Below are positions 15,070-32,972 of a stretch of 64,000 bases of DNA, one piece after another (positions within the stretch are counted from its first letter, which is position 1; every line of letters starts with the position of its first letter). The notes below the pieces were generated by a model. It did not search any database, was not told where the DNA came from, and saw only the letters and a list, made by a program, of their open reading frames with translations. Both the position numbers and the translations under genes were made by a program. Origin of the DNA: a virus; IMG/VR virus record IMGVR_UViG_3300045988_062794. The stretch is one strand, 5' to 3'.

Positions 15070-15155
15070 GTAAATGTAGTTTAAACACTATTATAGTGTA
15101 AGGAGAAAACAAGCAATTTTCATTGCTTATAAGAGTTCGAGTCTCTTCATTTACT
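15070..15155 (+). ncRNA. tRNA-like element 1 (86 nt): canonical acceptor stem and T arm, expanded D region, non-canonical 6/8-nt loop in the anticodon-arm position
   Basis: GTAAATG pairs with CATTTAC (7 bp). T arm is AAGAG-TTCGAGT-CTCTT. The internal arm AAGCAA-TTTTCA-TTGCTT cannot form a 7-nt anticodon loop. An extra hairpin ACACT-ATTAT-AGTGT sits in the D region. Confidence 0.55.
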
Positions 15156-16499: not shown

Positions 16500-16793
16500 C
16501 AGTTTACAACTTCATTATTTCTTCAGTGGCTGTACTTGCATGCGAATGTAGGTGCAGTCGTCCTCAGAAAATGACAAACCTGTGGGGCGTAAGTAACTAA
16601 GTAGTAATACTATAATGTCAGTATGTAGTATTACACTGAAACTGACTGTTATGATCGTGCGGACGTAAAAATCAGGTAGATGATAAGAATTGTACTGACA
16701 ATACAATTCTGCTGTATCTTAAAACAAGTTTTGATAGTCAAATTTTCCTAAACCAATCCTCGTTATTAGGTAAAATTTCTTTTTGTTTACGTA

Positions 16794-17437: not shown

Positions 17438-17689
17438 CTCGCCAGTTATAACTCTTTTATTAATAACTCTAAAGTTAACGCTTATGAGTATGGTGGTTAT
17501 CCCCAAGCATGTTAAACCTAACGCCCTAAACTCACTAAAATGTATATGAAGATATATACTACGAGTTGTGTATTTATATACAAATGACATAGTAAAAGTT
17601 CTATGTTAATTATAAGAAGGAAAGGAGGTAAGATAGGAATAAGGAATAAGAATACTATCTCATGCTTTTTACTTTAGAAACTTATTTGT

Positions 17690-17982: not shown

Positions 17983-18402
17983 ATGGAAGAAAAAGACATT
18001 ATTTCGCAGATCAAAGAAGGTAGAACAGTGAGCAAGTCTATGGTAGAAGAAGTAAATAAGGATATCCTCAAAAACAAAGAGGATGCTCTGAAAAGAGAAC
18101 TTGCAACAGCGCTGGTCGACAGCGAGTACAATGTTTCATACAGCAAACTGAAACTGAAACGTGCTCGTGCATTTGAGGAAGTAGAACGCACTCACATTCA
18201 GGAAACCGGTGCAAATCGGGAATCTCTCATGGCAGGCGGTCTGACTCCGGAAGAGTATAACAAGAAACAGAAGGAAATTGACAAGAAGCGCGAAGAAGAG
18301 CTTCTCAAAGTAAAACAAGAGTACAATACCTATCTTCGTCAGCTGAATGATCAGAATCCGGACATTTCCTGGGATACTCGAAAGAATAGTTTTAATAACT
18401 AA
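17983..18402 (+). CDS. hypothetical charged/coiled-coil protein (139 aa), G+C-rich coding
   Basis: ORF. One 60-nt line (18181-18240) counted by hand is 32/60 G+C. Confidence 0.55.
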   Translation: MEEKDIISQIKEGRTVSKSMVEEVNKDILKNKEDALKRELATALVDSEYNVSYSKLKLKRARAFEEVERTHIQETGANRESLMAGGLTPEEYNKKQKEIDKKREEELLKVKQEYNTYLRQLNDQNPDISWDTRKNSFNN

Positions 18403-18750
18403 TCTACAATCCAGTACTAAAGTGTCTATGTACTAATAGTATGTGTAATGTGAATCTTGAGTAGCATTACAGAGAGGAATAAACCTCTCTACTCAAGTCC
18501 CTTGTGGCAGTAGTAGGATATATGAGCGTATCAAAGACGGCAAGTATGTGTGCCTTAGTGCCAGCTTTTTGCTACATACTTTCTATCAAAGATTTCAAAT
18601 TGAAAACAGTATATGCTTTATGCTAGATTCTATGAGTATGTCTTGTATTTTGTTTAGCATTCAATAAGTCCCAGGCATGGGCAAGGAATCAATAACACTA
18701 TTACAAATATACTCTTTATAGAATCAATACTATTAGTAAATTCTTAGAGA

Positions 18751-18780
18751 GTAAGGAGAGTGATCTCCTTACTTTCACTA
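18751..18780. terminator. hairpin between convergent genes
   Basis: GTAAGGAG (18751-18758) pairs with CTCCTTAC (18765-18772). Lies between the plus-strand 17983..18402 and the minus-strand HNH gene. Confidence 0.4.
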
Positions 18781-18842
18781 TATTCACGGTATAAGAACTG
18801 TGCTGTGTCTTATTAGGCTTATTAATCATTGTTAGGACGGGG

Positions 18843-19388
18843 CTATCGTATGCCCCCATCTCCACTATACTTTTGTGCAATTATATTGCATAATTTAATA
18901 GTATCTTCATGAGACATTGTATTTTTCATATAATTTATTGCAGTAGATATAAATTGTACATTACCAATTTCATATCCTTTAGAAGAATCTATTCTATCTA
19001 AAGATGCAGTATAAATAGGATTATTATGATTTTTAGTATAAGTTGCTAATTGTAATTTAATTCCAGTATATGGACAAATACCGTTTTGTTGTTCCCATAT
19101 TTCTTTTAGATATTCTAATGTTAAATTAAAGTTTTTAAGTCTTTTCTTTGCATTTCTAAGATAATATCTAAAAGGAGTAAATTCATCTTTGCGATTATTT
19201 GAAATAAGATTAATAATATTACCACTTTTATTATTTTTATTTCCTTTCATTGAACAAGATCTACAACAATAATTATGTCTTTTCAATCGTATATTACGAT
19301 TATATTCTGTAATTGGTTTATCATACAGTTGTCCACAATTATCACAAACTATTTGAATTAATTTTCTATTCTGTTTATATTTTAACAT
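18843..19388 (-). CDS. HNH homing-type endonuclease
   Basis: CDNCGxxxxxxxxxxxxxxxxxxxxxxCCRSC zinc-like pairs plus SLDRIDSSKGYEIGNVQFISTAINYMKN (HNH-type). It is the only minus-strand gene inside the plus-strand block. Confidence 0.6.
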   Translation of the reverse strand: MLKYKQNRKLIQIVCDNCGQLYDKPITEYNRNIRLKRHNYCCRSCSMKGNKNNKSGNIINLISNNRKDEFTPFRYYLRNAKKRLKNFNLTLEYLKEIWEQQNGICPYTGIKLQLATYTKNHNNPIYTASLDRIDSSKGYEIGNVQFISTAINYMKNTMSHEDTIKLCNIIAQKYSGDGGIR

Positions 19389-19591
19389 AATATTAAAATT
19401 TTTAATTCGAAAACGTATAATATGTGGAATAGTTCTGTTTCGATATTAAAATATACGGGGATGAACGGTTTTGACTAGCAATTAGAGAGATAAGATAGGT
19501 TCGTTGTGTGTTTAAATGGCAATATTTTTGTCACAGACTATACCGGCTTAGTAGCTGCGTAAGTTTGCGTGCTAACTACGAAAGTGAGGGA

Positions 19592-19657
19592 GATAATATA
19601 GTTCAATGGTAGAATAATGCTTATGCATAGATCTGGGTTCAAATCCCAGTATTATCA
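19592..19657 (+). ncRNA. tRNA-like element 2 (66 nt), anticodon arm replaced by 4-bp stem + TTAT loop
   Basis: GATAATA TA GTTC-AATGGTA-GAAT A ATGC-TTAT-GCAT AGAT CTGGG-TTCAAAT-CCCAG TATTATC A. Twin of 29965..30030. Confidence 0.7.
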
Positions 19658-19675: not shown

Positions 19676-19990
19676 ATGAACAAGGAAGGTATAACGTACA
19701 GTAGTTATCTACAATATGTAGAAGAGAATTTACCGTTATCTTGGCGGAAAGTATCTCAGAAATATAATGTAGAAAAGCAATTGATTGAAGCAATCGCAAA
19801 GTATTGCTATGAACACCTCTTAAAAGGTTGTGAACTATATTATCATCTTCATGAAAATGAATTGATATGTAGTGCTGACTTTAGTAGAGAATCTCAAGGA
19901 ATAGATTGGTGGATGGATTTAAGCTCAGAAGCCAGTATGTTAGAAAACAATGGTTGTATAGAAACATTCTGTGACAATGACAAAGAGTGA
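19676..19990 (+). CDS. hypothetical protein (104 aa)
   Basis: ORF. Confidence 0.5.
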   Translation: MNKEGITYSSYLQYVEENLPLSWRKVSQKYNVEKQLIEAIAKYCYEHLLKGCELYYHLHENELICSADFSRESQGIDWWMDLSSEASMLENNGCIETFCDNDKE

Positions 19991-23957: not shown

Positions 23958-24350
23958 ATGAGCCGTTTAACAGATTTTCTTTGGTGCGTATTGTTCGCTT
24001 TTGCAGCGGTTATTATTAGCATCAAATTGAGCCCACAAAGGGTAGAAGCTGTTGAGGTTAAACCTCATTACGAGCTTACAATTCCTAAGGTCGAGCCTAA
24101 GTCTTTTAACTTAGAGCTTGACCTCTCTAAGGGAACAGCGAGAGTAGAAAGTGACGCAGGAATCAGTAACGCTAACGTTACAGTAAATCACCCTGCACCA
24201 CAAGTAATTAACAAACCTGCAAAGGTTAAAATTAAGAAAGTATATGAAACAAAAACTGAGGTGTTGTCGAAGGTCGTGATGTTTAAAATGCCTACCCCAC
24301 GATTGATTCACACAACAACACCTGAGTATCCTACAAGGGTAGTGAAGTAA
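23958..24350 (+). CDS. membrane-anchored hypothetical protein (130 aa)
   Basis: ORF with N-terminal hydrophobic FLWCVLFAFAAVIISI. Confidence 0.5.
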   Translation: MSRLTDFLWCVLFAFAAVIISIKLSPQRVEAVEVKPHYELTIPKVEPKSFNLELDLSKGTARVESDAGISNANVTVNHPAPQVINKPAKVKIKKVYETKTEVLSKVVMFKMPTPRLIHTTTPEYPTRVVK

Positions 24351-26644
24351 TTAACATTGTGCTTACTGTAGAATGGCACCAGGGAAAACGAGTCTACCCC
24401 TGTAGTAAGAAGATAGATAGTGGTATTGTAGCTGATACACTTAAAAAGCAATAAAATCAGCGTATATAAATTACGATAAATCTGATCAATTTATGGTTTG
24501 TATAGACAAGTAATACAGAATACGAGAATATGATAACAGCTAACACTGTGATTCAAAAGGTAGTATAATAACTTGCTGTGGATTTATTACTTTATCCATG
24601 AAGAATCAGCAAGAAAATGGGTAACGGGTATAACCCATAAAGCTCGAGAACCGTCTGGTGGAGCGATTACAACACGGCACGTAGGTCAGCAGACACGAAG
24701 GCAAAGTATACAAATGGGGTACAAATCCTTAAGTAAGTAGAAATGGCAATTCTACTGAATCCCCAATAGAGTCTGTAGGTACTATCAAGTACGGCATCAC
24801 AGAAGGACGAAAAGGGTTAATTATCGTTAGAATTCCAAACTAATGATAGCCGTTTAGACTGACTAACGTCTTCGATGGGTCCAAACTATCGTTAAAAATA
24901 GCTACTTCTAGTGTTCTACTCTACTGTTATTACTGCTTTGTATTACAGTAATAAAGATCTTGACAACATAACATATGGTATAGTTATGGATGAGTATGTG
25001 AAAGGAAGGATTCAAACCAAGAAAATTAATAATCGAAACTAAAAGCTGAGTGGCTATGATCCATACAAAGTTAAAGAGGTAACGGACTTTAATAGCGTAT
25101 GACAGATTATCCGGAGCAGGTGCCAAACCTGTGCTTGAGAAAGCTTATTAGAATGTTCACTTAGCCTTGCAAACTAAGTTAAATAGTTCTTTTAAGGGGG
25201 TATTCCAGGTGCTAGGTCTAGATTATGTGGGAGAGATTACCACGTCTTTGCGAAATCAAGGATTAAGAAAGGTATAAGGTTTGAAGAACAGTGACCGAGT
25301 TTTGTGCTTACATTATTTAATGAGAGTTATGTCACTATAAGTCATGGAAACTAAGCACACAGTGGTAAAAGTACTGAGAACTACTACCAAACAACAGAGG
25401 TGCAGTAGCGATGCACGTTGTACGCAATAAAAAAGGAATCCTACCGCCTGCGGTGTTTTAAAGGTGTAGGTAAGTTTAGTTAAAGCTTTCTTTAATAGAT
25501 ATAACGAAAGTGGGGCTAATGTATAGTCAATGGGCTAAATTCAAGTCTGTTAATCCAGAGAAATGTAAATGTTACGATGTTTACCTGAATCCAACGATTC
25601 ATCACTGGCTCGAGAGTTAACGAGACTCTTAAATAAAAGCGTGGATAACATGTCTAACTAACGTAGGTCCAAAAACCGAATAATAAATCTGTGGAAGTCC
25701 TCGCTAAGGAAACTGACTGCGACCACAGCTTGGCGAATGCGATTGCTTAGTAGTATCAGGGTATAATGCGCAACATTATATGTCCGAGAGAAAGCGTCTC
25801 ATTGAAGCTTATAGACCTTTAAGAGTGAACCTAATAGGGAAACTATACTTATAGACCTGTCATAAGCGAGAGTAGATGAGAAGAGGTGAAAGTCCTCAAT
25901 CTTCAACCAAGTAAAATAAATAAAATCCTAGTCATGGTTACGTTGGCATCCCTATACTTAGTAATAAGTATTATATGGCGTAAGAAGTAGGTATTAGTGA
26001 ATAACTATATGAATCCTATAAGTTATTACAAATAACAAAGAATGATGAAACTTACTTCATTCACTTCGCAGTTTTAGTAACGTTCTGAAAAACGACCGGA
26101 CATAACTACTTGCCCGATAGAGAGTTTTATTTTGTTGCCACATAAAATAATTATTAGAGGTCAATCTCTGGATAATCTAAAAGTTAGGCAGTTGTACGCT
26201 GTTTTATGTGAGTGCAGTTGGTCCTGAGACACCAGGAGAACCTTGGCAAAATATTACGGATCCTCTATGATAACGATTGTAGAGTATTTCACACATATTG
26301 ACTGAACTAAGAGAATCCTTCGAAGAGTCTCATTAGCTCTGGTCATAAAGCGATTTGATAGTTCCAAAGTAAGATAAATAAGTAATTTTGTAGTATCTGT
26401 CTCATATTATAAAAGGATATAGCAATAGCATAATATCAAGAAAGTTTATCTCGCTTCTAAAACAAATTAAAGTAAAAACAGTTTCTTTTCGTATTTCTAT
26501 CTCAGTATCTCTTGAATGAGACACGACCGTGGTTTTAACCTATCTGATATAAGATGATGATAAATCGTGCATAAAAACAAAGAGAAGAATACGGAGCACC
26601 AATTAAAATTATTATTAACAAACTTATCAAAAGGAGAAAATAAA
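24351..26644 (+). other. 2.3-kb ORF-free, G+C-enriched, hairpin-dense region; candidate large structured non-coding RNA locus (strand inferred from context only)
   Basis: The track has no plus-strand ORF of 60 codons or more and only one 72-codon minus ORF. TAA, TAG and TGA all recur in every frame I read. Hand-counted lines 24601-24660 and 24661-24720 are 27/60 and 30/60 G+C, against 14-15/60 in typical gene lines. Confidence 0.5.
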
Positions 26645-29964: not shown

Positions 29965-30030
29965 TTGTGTATAGTTTAATGGTAGAATATCTCGAAAGAG
30001 AAGATATGAGTTCGAGCCTCATTACACAAC
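29965..30030 (+). ncRNA. tRNA-like element 4 (66 nt), anticodon arm replaced by 4-bp stem + GAAA tetraloop
   Basis: TTGTGTA TA GTTT-AATGGTA-GAAT A TCTC-GAAA-GAGA AGAT ATGAG-TTCGAGC-CTCAT TACACAA C. Twin of 19592..19657. Confidence 0.7.
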
Positions 30031-30080
30031 TCCGTTACAAATTAACATTTTACATTAACATCAAATTAATTAAGTAAGAT

Positions 30081-30875
30081 ATGGAAACAATTCATTTATA
30101 CAAAACAAAGAAAGAACTGATTGAAGAAAGTTCAAAACGTGGTATTACAGTAAAACAACTTATCGCTGAAATTAAAGCAACAGCAAAGGCTGAACGGCGA
30201 AAGAAAGTATTATCTCATCAACAGAAATTAAACTATTGGAAAGTACATCGCTTTGATGCTGATGTACAACTTGTCAAGAAACATACTTCAGCTCAAGCTC
30301 GTTTTGAGAAGGTAATTCAAGACAAGATTAAAGGTCTTCATCAGTTTAAGAAACAGACAAATATGTCTGATGAAGCTTTTGAAGCGGCAAAAGAACGTAT
30401 TGAAAAGCACTCACAGAGAGAAAAAGCTCTCGAAGAGAGACGAGCTGATCGTAGAGCTCGAATCGAGAAAGAAGCTCTCAGAGTCACAAAAAAGATGAAA
30501 AGTGACTTAGAAAGATTTATCCAGGCTGAACAATTACGAAAGACTCGAAAAGAGGAGAAACGGTCCAAATATGCCGGCAAAAAAGTGAAGGTCGCTCCTC
30601 GACCCATTGTAGACAACCCTCTTGTTAAGCTAAAGAAAGGAGAAGCTATTTATAGTATCGAAATTCGTTACCTTAACAGCAAGAGTGTTCTTCCTCCAAC
30701 GTCTCCCTACACTATCGACAAGTTAGAGAAACGTATGTCTGATATTCATACTTATCAGTTAGGAAAGAAGAACAATGGTTATATAGGTGTATATGCCTAC
30801 AATATTGCTAATCCTTCTATTTGCGTGAAGGAAATGGTTAAGCCAGAAGAATCAAAACTTGATTCTGCAGCTTAA
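30081..30875 (+). CDS. hypothetical highly basic K/R/E-rich protein (264 aa)
   Basis: ORF. Confidence 0.55.
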   Translation: METIHLYKTKKELIEESSKRGITVKQLIAEIKATAKAERRKKVLSHQQKLNYWKVHRFDADVQLVKKHTSAQARFEKVIQDKIKGLHQFKKQTNMSDEAFEAAKERIEKHSQREKALEERRADRRARIEKEALRVTKKMKSDLERFIQAEQLRKTRKEEKRSKYAGKKVKVAPRPIVDNPLVKLKKGEAIYSIEIRYLNSKSVLPPTSPYTIDKLEKRMSDIHTYQLGKKNNGYIGVYAYNIANPSICVKEMVKPEESKLDSAA

Positions 30876-30909: not shown

Positions 30910-31006
30910 GTAGGATAATAGTGTGATAAGCTATAAAAGGCACTATACAGTTTTGTGGGAACGAAACTAGGCGCATGTATAGGGCAGTTCGATACTGCAT
31001 CCTACC
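30910..31006 (+). ncRNA. tRNA-like element 5 (97 nt): perfect 7-bp acceptor closure and T-loop hairpin, non-tRNA interior
   Basis: GTAGGAT (30910-30916) pairs with ATCCTAC (30999-31005). T hairpin is GCAG-TTCGATA-CTGC. The interior holds TAGTG/CACTA and AGTTT/AAACT hairpins. Confidence 0.45.
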
Positions 31007-31022
31007 ACTAAATAACCACACT

Positions 31023-32972
31023 ATGAAAATTAGAAACAAACCAGTATTAGTATATGATATTGAAGTATTTCAAAATATCTTTCATTGTACTGTAAAAAAT
31101 ACTGAAACTAATGAACTATTTCTATTTGAAATATCTGAACGTAAGAATCAGTTAAGTGAATTAGTTAAGTTTTTTAAACATTTTGATAATCAAGTTGGTT
31201 CATGGAACCAATCATATACAATAGATTATCAATTTGATACAGATGTAATATTCGCAGGATACAATAATATTCATTATGATAATCCTATTATAAATTATAT
31301 AATAGATTATTATAATCGCATGGTACAAAAACCTTATTGGGAAATTTGTCAGTCTATTTTTAACCTAAGTAAAGTAATACTGTCAAGTAAAGATGGTAAT
31401 GAAGATGCTTGGGAGAAATGGAAATATCAACAATGGTTTGAATCATTTGATATTCTTACTATGCTATATTCAACTCAACTACGTGTTGGCTTGAAAGAAA
31501 TGCAAGTAACAATGCAATATCCCAATGTTCAAGAATTTGTATATGATTGGAGTAGTCCTTTAAAAAAGGAATTATTTGATGAAATGATTCAATATAATAT
31601 AAATGATGTTGAATCTACTTCAGAACTACTACAAAGATGCAAGAAAGATGTTGACCTACGAATTGCAATTGAAGATGAATATGGTGTAAGAGTCTTAAGT
31701 AAAGATGGAGTAAATATCGGTATGAAAATTATTACTCAAAAGTATCTTGAAAAGACAGGGTTAACATGGAAACAGATTAAAGATCTTCGTTCTCCTATGG
31801 ACCTAATTCCACTGAAAGATGTTATACTTCCTTTTGTTAAATATGAATCTCCTATTCTTAAAAACATGCTTGAAGAAATGAAAAAACAAATAGTTCCTCC
31901 AGGTAGAAAAGGATATGAGTATAAATTTATATTTGATAATCTACGTTATTCAGTAGGAGTAGGAGGTATTCATTCAGTAAATAACCCTGAGATTATTATA
32001 CCAAAAGAAGATGAAATGCTAATAGATATAGACGTTGCTTCTCTATATCCAAGTATGCTAATACAATACAAGTTTTATCCTAAACATTTAGGACCTGAAT
32101 TTCTTGAAGTTTATTCTCAAATTAGAGAAGAACGATTAGAAGCAAAAAGAAATGGAAACAAAGTAAAGAATGAAACTTTGAAACTTGCGTTAAATGGTTT
32201 AAGTGGTAATTTACAAAACGAACATAATTTTTGTTATAGTCCTTTTGCAGTAATGCAAATCCGTATTAACGGGCAATTGCTATTACTTATGTTAGCTGAA
32301 TCATTAGTTAAATTAGGCTGTAGAATAGTGCAGGCTAATACTGATGGTTTATTTGTCTTACTTAAGAAAAACAAATACGAACAGGTTAAACAAGCTTGTA
32401 AAGCCTGGGAACAGTTAACAAAGCTTGAACTTGAAGAAGATCGTTTTGAAGCTATGTATCAATTTGCAATTAATGATTATATTGCAATTAAAGAAGGATA
32501 TAAAGCTAATAAAGATGATAAACTTATTAAAAAGAAAGGTATGTTTATTACAGATGTCTTACTTGGTAAAGGTCTTAATCCTAAGATAATACCTGAAGCA
32601 GTTATTAGATATTTTGCAAATGGAATACCTGTGAAAGATACTATAATGAACTGTAAAGACATTCGTAAATTCTTACAAGCTGAAAAAACAGGTAAACAAT
32701 GGACAGTAGAATACAACAATGAAGTACAACAGCGAATTAATCGTTTTTATGTTAGTACAAATGGTTTATATTTATGGAAATGGAAAGATAATAAAGGTAT
32801 AAAAGAGTATCAAAATATGCTTAAAGGATATGGTGTTACTATACTTAATACTCTTCCAGAAGATAAACCCATTGACCAGTATAATATTAATTACACTTAT
32901 TATATTCTACAGGCAACAAAGATTATTAACGCATTAAAGCCACAACAGCTAAGTCTATGGGGCTTTTCATAA
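31023..32972 (+). CDS. family B DNA polymerase (start moved to ATG at 31023)
   Basis: Exo I YDIEVF, Exo II NNIHYDNPII, Exo III YNINDV, motif A DVASLYPS, motif B KLALNGLSG, motif C ANTDGLFV. The track start at 30975 would overlap the tRNA-like element. Confidence 0.85.
   Translation: MKIRNKPVLVYDIEVFQNIFHCTVKNTETNELFLFEISERKNQLSELVKFFKHFDNQVGSWNQSYTIDYQFDTDVIFAGYNNIHYDNPIINYIIDYYNRMVQKPYWEICQSIFNLSKVILSSKDGNEDAWEKWKYQQWFESFDILTMLYSTQLRVGLKEMQVTMQYPNVQEFVYDWSSPLKKELFDEMIQYNINDVESTSELLQRCKKDVDLRIAIEDEYGVRVLSKDGVNIGMKIITQKYLEKTGLTWKQIKDLRSPMDLIPLKDVILPFVKYESPILKNMLEEMKKQIVPPGRKGYEYKFIFDNLRYSVGVGGIHSVNNPEIIIPKEDEMLIDIDVASLYPSMLIQYKFYPKHLGPEFLEVYSQIREERLEAKRNGNKVKNETLKLALNGLSGNLQNEHNFCYSPFAVMQIRINGQLLLLMLAESLVKLGCRIVQANTDGLFVLLKKNKYEQVKQACKAWEQLTKLELEEDRFEAMYQFAINDYIAIKEGYKANKDDKLIKKKGMFITDVLLGKGLNPKIIPEAVIRYFANGIPVKDTIMNCKDIRKFLQAEKTGKQWTVEYNNEVQQRINRFYVSTNGLYLWKWKDNKGIKEYQNMLKGYGVTILNTLPEDKPIDQYNINYTYYILQATKIINALKPQQLSLWGFS

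Follow-up and report, generated by a model that had tools for sequence, protein, structure and literature searches.

Transfer RNAs (tRNAs) can serve as punctuation in longer transcripts: in animal mitochondria, and in bacterial and phage co-transcripts of tRNA and messenger RNA (mRNA), RNA ends are set by ribonuclease (RNase) P and RNase Z. Plant mitochondrial t-elements are non-canonical cloverleaves with a conserved T arm that lie beside genes on the transcribed strand; in experimentally demonstrated cleavages they are cut by RNase P at the 5' end and by RNase Z at the 3' end, their ends coincide with mRNA ends, and the released element can receive a C or CCA tail (Forner et al., 2007, PMC1920247). 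The mascRNA of MALAT1 and the menRNA of MEN-beta are likewise tRNA-like, have no usable anticodon loop and lie directly 3' of a non-coding RNA, and for mascRNA RNase P makes the 3' end of the upstream RNA before RNase Z and CCA addition release an RNA of about 60 nucleotides (nt) that is not aminoacylated (PMC11693755). Here we analyse a 64,000-nt stretch of viral DNA (IMG/VR record IMGVR_UViG_3300045988_062794), referred to at its full length as the window, and describe two 66-nt tRNA-shaped elements, copy 1 and copy 2, in which the anticodon arm is reduced to a stub. The closest annotated relatives of the window, based on blastn against phage records, are crAss-like phages of the Suoliviridae/Boorivirinae (cr10_1, cr50_1, cr55_1 and others), and we propose with moderate confidence that the elements are tRNA-derived, cis-acting RNase P/RNase Z processing ('punctuation') signals in the early and replication transcripts of the phage. 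The two elements and their parts are as follows.

19592-19657, + strand: copy 1, 66-nt tRNA-shaped element (59.2 bits against the Rfam tRNA model, full length; 74.3 bits against R1, our own covariance model)
19592-19598 and 19650-19656, + strand: copy 1 acceptor stem, GATAATA with TATTATC
19599-19600, + strand: copy 1 U8-A9 (TA)
19601-19615, + strand: copy 1 D arm, GTTC-AATGGTA-GAAT
19616, + strand: copy 1 nucleotide 26 (A)
19617-19628, + strand: copy 1 stub hairpin, AUGC-UUAU-GCAU
19629-19632, + strand: copy 1 variable segment, AGAU
19633-19649, + strand: copy 1 T arm, CTGGG-TTCAAAT-CCCAG
19657, + strand: copy 1 discriminator A
29965-30030, + strand: copy 2, 66-nt tRNA-shaped element (48.4 bits against the Rfam tRNA model, full length; 63.6 bits against R1)
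29965-29971 and 30023-30029, + strand: copy 2 acceptor stem, TTGTGTA (followed by TA) with TACACAA
29974-29988, + strand: copy 2 D arm, GTTT-AATGGTA-GAAT (followed by A)
29990-30001, + strand: copy 2 stub hairpin, UCUC-GAAA-GAGA
30002-30005, + strand: copy 2 variable segment, AGAU
30006-30022, + strand: copy 2 T arm, ATGAG-TTCGAGC-CTCAT
30030, + strand: copy 2 discriminator C

Infernal aligned both copies to positions 1-71 of the Rfam tRNA model RF00005 (gathering score 29), with E-values over the whole 64-kb window of 2.9e-10 for copy 1 and 2.8e-7 for copy 2, and these full-length scores indicate that the tRNA-shaped elements are real, well beyond chance. They possess the features that define the RF00005 cloverleaf (the 7-bp acceptor stem, the D arm, a T-Psi-C T arm and the universal tertiary nucleotides), and the sole local deletion relative to the model falls, in both copies, in the anticodon stem-loop, where nine model positions are replaced by 4 nt. 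A 4-bp stem with a 4-nt loop thus stands in place of the canonical 5-bp/7-nt arm. An earlier reading made from the letters of the window alone (the sequence-only reading) had described this 66-nt fold exactly as we find it, with an arm unable to carry an anticodon and with all nucleotides needed to build the elbow, and U8, A14, G18/G19, A21, T54-T55-C56, A58 and C61 are indeed all found in both copies. It had also expected tRNA gene finders to make no call, and ARAGORN returned no tRNA and no transfer-messenger RNA (tmRNA) across the whole window, a result that is informative only in that it confirms the absence of an anticodon loop. The minimum free energy (MFE) fold of copy 1 is the cloverleaf with its stub (-15.6 kcal/mol, z = -2.0). 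That of the AU-rich copy 2 differs from the cloverleaf, as often happens with unmodified tRNA sequences, and its cloverleaf is backed by comparison with relatives instead. The acceptor pair 3-70 is U3-A70 in copy 1 and G3-C70 in copy 2, and neither copy has, judging from its sequence and from general knowledge, an identity set for anticodon-independent aminoacylation such as G3.U70, a long variable arm or G-1.

The fold is under selection. An alignment of 25 distinct sequences drawn from the two sites has standard pairs in 97.0% of the cells of its acceptor, D and T helices, compared with about 43% (37-50%) in slid controls and 70.5% in column shuffles; 12 of the 16 pairs have changed on both sides, and none of 500 shuffles reached the observed covariation score. 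In a larger set of 48 distinct sequences, which was aligned with R1 and is therefore biased towards structure, pairing rises to 98.7% and 15 of the 16 pairs have changed on both sides. The invariant columns of the smaller set are U8, A9, G10, A14, A15, G18/19, A21, G53, T54, T55, C56, A58 and C61, with U48, the Levitt partner of A15, close to invariant, and the 4-bp D stem is paired in 100% and 98.4% of cells in the two sets, its G.U pairs fitting only the + (gene) strand. The stub covaries as well (CUGA/UCAG to CUGG/CCAG; CGUAA/UUACG to CGUGA/UCACG; CACGG/CCGUG to CGUGG/CCAUG). The 7+5-bp coaxial stack, the invariant G18G19 and T54-C56 and the covariation are together the marks of a t-element- or mascRNA-type fold. 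Selection on the fold had previously been argued from compensatory changes between the two copies, said to cover all acceptor and stub pairs and the T stem: all pairs are indeed complementary, but only five of seven acceptor, four of four stub and two of five T-stem pairs differ, and it is the covariation among orthologs that is decisive. The 17-mer D arm that the copies share also occurs in more than 100 ordinary phage tRNAs, so their paralogy is unproven and a recent duplication could not be demonstrated.

What varies is the arm. The elements that follow the tmRNA described below fall into five sequence types.

Type A (window), 66 nt: arm AUGC-UUAU-GCAU
Type B (cr10_1), 66 nt: arm CUGA-UUGU-UCAG, with variants CUGG/CCAG and CUGG/UCAG
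Type C (cr55_1), 69-70 nt: arm CGUAA-UUUUA-UUACG; in the sister L040, CGUGA-UUUA-UCACG
Type D (cr50_1), 71-73 nt: arm CCUGR-AUUUUA-UCAGG
Type E, 71 nt: arm CACGG-AUUUUA-CCGUG, or CGUGG/CCAUG

Copy 2 orthologs measure 66 nt in the window type, 68-69 nt with UAACA-UUUU(U)-UGUUA in the cr10_1 type, and 72 nt with a 6-nt loop in L268/L273. The segment between D stem and T stem spans 17-21 nt in all copy 1 and copy 2 orthologs, as against 22-23 nt in canonical tRNAs, and from 8 to more than 60 nt in the wider family; loops of 3, 4, 5, 6, 9 and 12 nt occur, and no copy 1 or copy 2 ortholog has a canonical 17-nt arm in the canonical frame. ARAGORN names the type C ortholog of cr55_1 tRNA-Lys(UUU), with a fold that requires a D stem of 3 bp and a variable loop of 3 nt and omits nucleotide 26; given these requirements, and given that L040 combines a compensated stem change with the loss of a loop nucleotide, type C, too, is no ordinary tRNA. 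The elements may descend from a gene resembling tRNA-Lys(UUU), as their U-rich loops suggest. In public annotation the elements lie inside a 'tmRNA', are labelled 'tRNA-Lys', 'tRNA-Cys' or 'tRNA-Ser', or carry no label.

Copy 1 directly adjoins a permuted (two-piece) tmRNA that spans 18778-19591 on the + strand, on which the sequence-only reading was silent, as it was on the fixed spacing to downstream start codons and on the third element of the window described below. Neither ARAGORN nor Rfam calls this tmRNA in the window; the homologous regions of cr10_1 and cr50_1 match the Rfam family tmRNA_permuted (RF04321) and are called by ARAGORN as permuted tmRNAs (its tmRNA* class) with the stop-terminated tags GNNFVTDYTQLAVA and GNNFVTDYTAIGA. 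The parts of the window tmRNA, and the open reading frame (ORF) inserted between them, are listed here.

About 18778 (5' boundary approximate) to 18865, + strand: tmRNA acceptor piece, aligned to cr10_1 and cr55_1
18839-18856, + strand: T arm of the acceptor piece, GGGGC-UAUCGUAU-GCCCC
18857-18863, + strand: 3' acceptor strand, CAUCUCC
18864, + strand: tmRNA discriminator A
18843-19388, - strand: HNH / endonuclease VII-type homing endonuclease ORF of 181 amino acids (PHROGs endonuclease families, E 1e-24 to 4e-16)
19457-19591, + strand: tmRNA coding piece, homologous to the cr10_1/cr50_1 regions matching RF04321
19457-19463, + strand: 5' acceptor strand of the coding piece, GGGGAUG
19518-19562, + strand: tag frame GNIFVTDYTGLVAA, ending in a stop codon
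End of the coding piece, + strand: conserved 3' end ...GUGCUAACUACGAAAGUGAGGGA, abutting copy 1

GGGGAUG pairs with CAUCUCC, so that the window tmRNA has G3.U70, and the tag and the length of the coding piece are kept in more than 30 loci. A search pattern made from the conserved 3' terminus of this piece yielded 41 loci in IMG/VR, which with the reference genomes and the window make 44 instances, and in 44 of 44, across five diverged sequence types, a tRNA-shaped element starts 0-1 nt after the motif. A terminal helix is predicted in which GAAAGUGAGGG, the closing 11-12 nt of the coding piece, pairs with CUCCUUACUUUC from the region flanking the acceptor piece on its 5' side; it would reach the junction and receives weak support from comparison among relatives. 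Just 5' of the acceptor piece (18750-18783, + strand) stands the strong hairpin GUAAGGAGA-GUGA-UCUCCUUAC; its 3' strand is also complementary to GAAAGUGAGGG, which makes the two pairings mutually exclusive and may point to an alternative structure in the tmRNA precursor or to a feature used in its processing.

The second fixed position is relative to start codons. With the ORF downstream of copy 2 as a query we retrieved only near-identical genomes and therefore used DNA polymerase homologs as the anchor; a search of the 80 loci so anchored (66-100% polymerase identity) with R1 gave 110 matches, all 110 on the gene strand. Directly upstream of the polymerase gene the forms comprise canonical tRNA-Arg(UCU) (74 nt) and tRNA-Val(CAC), elements of 71-72 nt with a 3-nt loop (ARAGORN 'His' or no call), of 80-84 nt with a 12-nt loop, of 59 nt without any arm and of 123 nt with a large insertion; elsewhere in these loci, with polymerases only about 70% identical, there are 64-65-nt elements of window-like architecture with 3-4-bp stubs and 3-4-nt loops. 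All retain six or seven of seven acceptor pairs, five of five T-stem pairs and the T loop. Whatever their type or length (59-123 nt), 57 of the 59 elements that precede the polymerase ORF stop 18-22 nt short of its ATG, a count that, like the locus counts, comes from related genomes and is not phylogenetically independent, and the spacers are AU-rich, most of them starting with C(U/A)AAC. In four of the five types, copy 1 orthologs stop 14-36 nt before the next ATG, and in the window this distance is 18 nt for copy 1, 50 nt for copy 2 and 28 nt for a third tRNA-shaped element.

15070-15155, + strand: third tRNA-shaped element, 86 nt, matched only by the custom covariance model R1 (36.8 bits, E 4e-5)

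This element lies between two ORFs, 17 nt past the upstream stop codon, and has seven of seven acceptor pairs, five of five T-stem pairs, the T loop UUCGAGU, an extra hairpin within the D loop and, at the anticodon position, the arm AAGCAA-UUUUCA-UUGCUU (6-bp stem, 6-nt U-rich loop). Its MFE fold is a four-way junction (-17.6 kcal/mol, z -2.1), it scores below the Rfam gathering score and is uncalled by ARAGORN, and it has a 79-nt counterpart in cr10_1 (L238, 31882-31960). The complete cr10_1 genome holds no ordinary tRNA, only two truncated elements and this third, aberrant one.

We infer that the elements are transcribed within longer RNAs and act there in cis. Under this model the decoding part, the anticodon arm, would have been lost, while the features read by host RNase P, RNase Z and the CCA-adding enzyme would have been kept, namely the 7-bp acceptor stem stacked on the 5-bp T stem (12 bp) and the elbow of D loop and T loop. 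RNase P would cut at the 5' end of the element; at copy 1, a cut at 19591/19592 would make the mature 3' end of the tmRNA coding piece, flush with its predicted terminal helix. A second cut, made behind the discriminator by RNase Z or by some other activity that does the same work at 3' ends, would yield a downstream mRNA with a short, AU-rich, unstructured leader; in a variant of the model, the element would remain attached to this mRNA at its 5' end and protect it. Such cleavage would be important for the function of both tmRNA and mRNA. The enzymes concerned behave in this way elsewhere: the G19-C56 elbow is recognised by RNase P and RNase Z, which take it as the origin of their measurement, and mascRNA is processed and the MALAT1 3' end made in this way (PMC11693755), t-elements likewise define mRNA ends in plant mitochondria (PMC1920247), and permuted tmRNA transcripts are cut by tRNA-processing enzymes (PMC11915505). 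Because the conserved stack and elbow and the expendable arm match the needs of RNase P, RNase Z and the CCA-adding enzyme, and because the elements occupy fixed positions in cis, a processing signal is the best supported reading. Also in its favour are the gene-strand orientation of all 110 matches, the absence of ordinary tRNAs from the complete cr10_1 genome, which leaves no decoding set, and the presence of a Hatchet self-cleaving ribozyme and RAGATH RNAs in other intergenic gaps of the operon.

Several observations weigh against it. An acceptor/T minihelix can suffice for RNase P, so the strict conservation of the whole D arm and of a closed stub points to some further constraint, which may be a function of the RNA once released. 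Canonical tRNA-Arg(UCU) and tRNA-Val(CAC) occupy equivalent sites in relatives, where decoding may be primary and the position may be kept partly by shared ancestry, and the relatedness of the genomes tempers the spacing statistic. Type E copy 1 orthologs lie about 140 nt from the next long ATG ORF, and the distance from copy 2 and its orthologs to the following ATG is 44-50 nt instead of 18-22 nt; the model also leaves unexplained the conserved 20 nt that flank them on the 3' side.

The elements resemble t-elements in their non-canonical cloverleaf, conserved T arm and placement beside genes on the transcribed strand; unlike those organellar, heterogeneous and often poorly conserved sequences (PMC1920247), they keep a complete D arm and elbow, have a minimised arm and include one that would serve a tmRNA, and their cleavage is deduced whereas that of t-elements has been demonstrated. 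They share with mascRNA and menRNA the tRNA-like shape, the want of a usable anticodon loop and, for copy 1, the place directly 3' of a non-coding RNA. The eukaryotic, nuclear mascRNA has a reduced D stem-loop, no single-stranded linker residues and a longer anticodon-equivalent stem (PMC11693755), whereas in the phage elements it is the anticodon arm that is shortened, the D arm being complete and the U8/A9/N26 linkers present; the two are not related by descent. As in tRNA punctuation, tRNA-shaped units stand between genes, and canonical tRNA-Arg or tRNA-Val of relatives occupy the same sites; those tRNAs also decode, which the window elements cannot. Two further families are similar in outline. 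The tmRNA reduced to its tRNA-like domain (TLD) in mycobacteriophage DS6A and the plastid tmRNAs without a coding sequence are likewise tRNA-like, measure about 65 nt, lack an anticodon arm and are linked to trans-translation; G3.U70 gives them alanine identity, and no D stem accompanies their D-loop analogue (PMC4131195, PMC11915505). The window elements lack G3.U70, have a normal, conserved 4-bp D arm and match only the tRNA family of Rfam and not its tmRNA models. YrlA-type Y RNAs, which are found in bacteria and phages, combine a tRNA-like domain of T and D arms with no functional anticodon loop, and in Mycobacterium smegmatis YrlA, with its 7-bp acceptor stem, is cut by RNase P and CCA-tailed (PMC4201824). 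YrlA is larger, has a Ro60-binding helix and adjoins the rsr gene (PMC4201824), whereas the phage elements stand alone at 66 nt, closed by their own acceptor stem and with no extra helix; the annotation of the complete relative cr10_1 contains no Ro60 gene, and no Y-RNA family of Rfam matches in the window. Since the defining features of both families are missing, we place the elements outside them.

Next in strength to a processing signal, and in our estimate unlikely, is a tRNA mimic acting in trans: once released and CCA-tailed, the RNA of about 66 nt would be bound by a factor that recognises the tRNA elbow and acceptor. It might, for instance, be a decoy that a tRNA-targeting defence nuclease cannot cleave, or titrate a protein that binds tRNA or tmRNA, and such a role could coexist with processing. 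This reading is consistent with the fact that the D arm in its entirety, the Levitt pair A15-U48 and the closed stub are conserved beyond the minimal needs of an RNase P substrate, with the U-rich stub loops of most lineages (AUUUUA, UUUUA, UUAU, UUGU, UUUU), which recall the loop of tRNA-Lys(UUU), and with lineage-specific traits by which the two elements of a genome resemble each other (1-72 is an A1.A72 mismatch in both elements of cr10_1, whereas both window copies have a paired 1-72 and the 66-nt format). The TLD-only tmRNA of DS6A is reported to inhibit trans-translation (PMC4131195), and genes of truncated tRNA shape carrying this D arm are strongly enriched in viruses, with 86 loci in viral contigs against 15 in a set of about 186,000 prokaryotic genomes. 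A trans-acting RNA, however, has no need of a 0-1-nt spacing to a tmRNA or an 18-22-nt spacing to a start codon, the stub varies so freely in sequence, loop and length, down to no arm, that nothing specific is presented there, and canonical tRNAs replace the elements at the same sites. Somewhat less likely again is the particular case of a decoy in early infection by crAss-like phages, in which the ~66-nt RNA would soak up a host tRNA-targeting nuclease or elbow-reading factor, the U-rich stub would be a relic of a tRNA-Lys(UUU) target, and processing would serve biogenesis only.

We regard it as improbable that copy 1 is a third domain of the tmRNA, attached or associated, and inseparable from it; such a domain could, for instance, cap the coding piece with a tRNA-like 3' structure that stabilises it or aids trans-translation. 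The element co-occurs with the coding piece in 100% of instances and immediately adjoins it, and both ARAGORN and the GenBank annotation place it inside the 'tmRNA' feature of cr10_1 and cr50_1; but the same architecture recurs far from any tmRNA, in copy 2, in the third element and ahead of the polymerase gene, and the element has its own closed 7-bp acceptor stem, no G3.U70 and a D arm of the normal tRNA type, not a tmRNA D-loop analogue.

That the elements are neutral remnants, tRNA genes decaying after deletion of the anticodon arm, is very improbable and effectively refuted by the covariation. Recent deletion of full tRNAs had been named as an outcome that would overturn selection on the fold, and at first sight relatives offer it, with canonical tRNA-Arg or tRNA-Val before the polymerase gene, an ARAGORN tRNA-Lys(UUU) and a one-off 51-nt deletion derivative of tRNA-Arg in L305; truncated elements of unrelated phages also sit in or next to tRNA clusters and may well be decaying genes there, and genuine decay looks like the L305 singleton. 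Yet 97-99% of stem cells are paired and 12-15 of 16 pairs compensated across genera whose DNA polymerases are just 66-87% identical, in alignments of 25 and 48 distinct sequences of several types that are not dominated by near-identical genomes, the stub covaries, the nucleotides of tertiary interactions are all invariant, and the complete cr10_1 genome keeps these elements and no ordinary tRNA. The truncated forms are thus old and conserved across genera, with compensated stubs, and are not recent deletions.

Unconventional decoding through a non-standard anticodon loop is hardly credible: ARAGORN does give tRNA-Lys(UUU) for the cr55_1-type ortholog and one 69-nt copy 2 ortholog, and 'His', 'Cys' or 'Ser' for other members, but the 4-nt loops on 4-bp stems of the window copies leave no room for an anticodon, the Lys fold has the requirements given above, L040 has lost a loop nucleotide beside its compensated stem change, and ortholog loops range from 3 to 12 nt.

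tRNA-like processing signals are known in themselves; what would be new here is their presence in a phage, with a full tRNA core, a minimised arm and one element that would serve a two-piece tmRNA. In the literature that we covered, which is incomplete, we found no published description of these elements in crAss-like phages. These phages rank with the most abundant viruses in the human gut. If the elements are processing signals, a phage has turned tRNA genes into pure processing signals of a sort so far documented in organelles and mammalian long non-coding RNAs; this would account for 3'-end formation of the two-piece tmRNA and would explain the odd 'tRNA-???', 'tRNA-Lys', 'tRNA-His' and 'tRNA-Cys' and the over-long 'tmRNA' annotations in these genomes. 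The natural series of minimal tRNA cores, from armless forms to those with a 12-nt loop, would still satisfy its reader and would be useful for defining the needs of RNase P, RNase Z and the CCA-adding enzyme in Bacteroidota.

The elements sit in a long same-strand block of early and replication genes, and the DNA polymerase of the window reaches 100% identity in human-gut IMG/VR contigs. The features flanking them downstream are these.

19676-19990, + strand: first ORF downstream of copy 1, 104 amino acids, no family match; its ATG lies 18 nt after the discriminator
30031-30050, + strand: conserved 3' flank of copy 2, UCCGUUACAAAUUAACAUU..., common to cr10_1-type and L268-type genomes
30081-30875, + strand: first ORF downstream of copy 2, 264 amino acids, no family match; starts 50 nt after the discriminator
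30975-32972: DNA polymerase gene, following the 264-amino-acid ORF

A PHROGs search of the ORFs flanking both copies assigned no family to the immediate neighbours and matched only the HNH endonuclease, the DNA polymerase and an ATPase-like protein. The flank UCCGUUACAAAUUAACAUU, about 20 nt directly 3' of copy 2 and of its equivalents in L004/L260-L273, exceeds the stems of copy 2 itself in cross-genus conservation and may be a leader or promoter. Scans for sigma-70 promoters and terminators around both copies gave no useful excess over shuffled expectation. A hairpin, GGCAA-UUUGC-UUGCC, flagged as terminator-like, precedes copy 2 in the window, and a hairpin also precedes the cr50_1 and cr55_1 elements upstream of the polymerase gene; a conserved 5' hairpin as a general protector of the upstream RNA 3' end was rejected, as it is missing in cr10_1-type copy 2 orthologs, which begin 7-10 nt after the stop codon.

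The HNH ORF lies within the 617-nt intervening segment of the tmRNA, and its homologs in relatives are annotated as endonuclease or HNH endonuclease. This cassette always accompanies a variant T arm with the 8-nt loop UAUCGUAU in place of UUCGACU (window, L012, L020), and the same loci have a compensated acceptor pair, GGGGAUG/CAUCUCC as against GGGGCUG/CAGCUCC, which looks like co-conversion by a homing endonuclease or target-site immunity. Other relatives have a group I intron with an HNH gene in the tmRNA T loop (L003, L036, L043), or no insertion.

Upstream of the tmRNA, the intergenic gaps of the same operon hold a Hatchet self-cleaving ribozyme (16560-16677, + strand, 85 bits), a RAGATH-9 RNA (17493-17670, + strand, 92 bits) and a weak, sub-threshold RAGATH-22-like match (18383-18533, + strand, 23.7 bits); relatives hold the same set and score strongly for RAGATH-22 at the last position. 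Between the two copies, a region of about 2.2 kb (24350-26567) has 53-67 stop codons in each + strand frame and no Rfam match at E<1; its equivalent is unannotated in cr10_1, cr50_1 and cr55_1, yet these genera share 72-85% DNA identity in long blocks there, which makes it a candidate for a large non-coding RNA or an unconventional gene. The structural-gene region of cr10_1 contains an annotated reverse transcriptase of the retron or diversity-generating retroelement type (L239 14930-15970, equal to cr10_1 64930-65970).

Unrelated IMG/VR contigs (L169/L202, L170/L223, L162/L231, L182, L172, L205/L210, L193/L206, L212 and others) carry tRNA-shaped sequences of 57-69 nt with perfect acceptor and T stems and little or no anticodon arm, mostly in or beside ordinary tRNA gene clusters. 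Finally, an acceptor-less tRNA-like core recurs in a further set of unrelated contigs (L186, L188, L196, L211, L218, L176, L222, L230); it consists of the D arm UAGUUYAAUGGUAGAAC, a short hairpin, AGAC and a T arm with the unusual loop UUCGAAG, matches the Rfam tRNA model only in part (positions 8-63), and is probably a module of a larger RNA.

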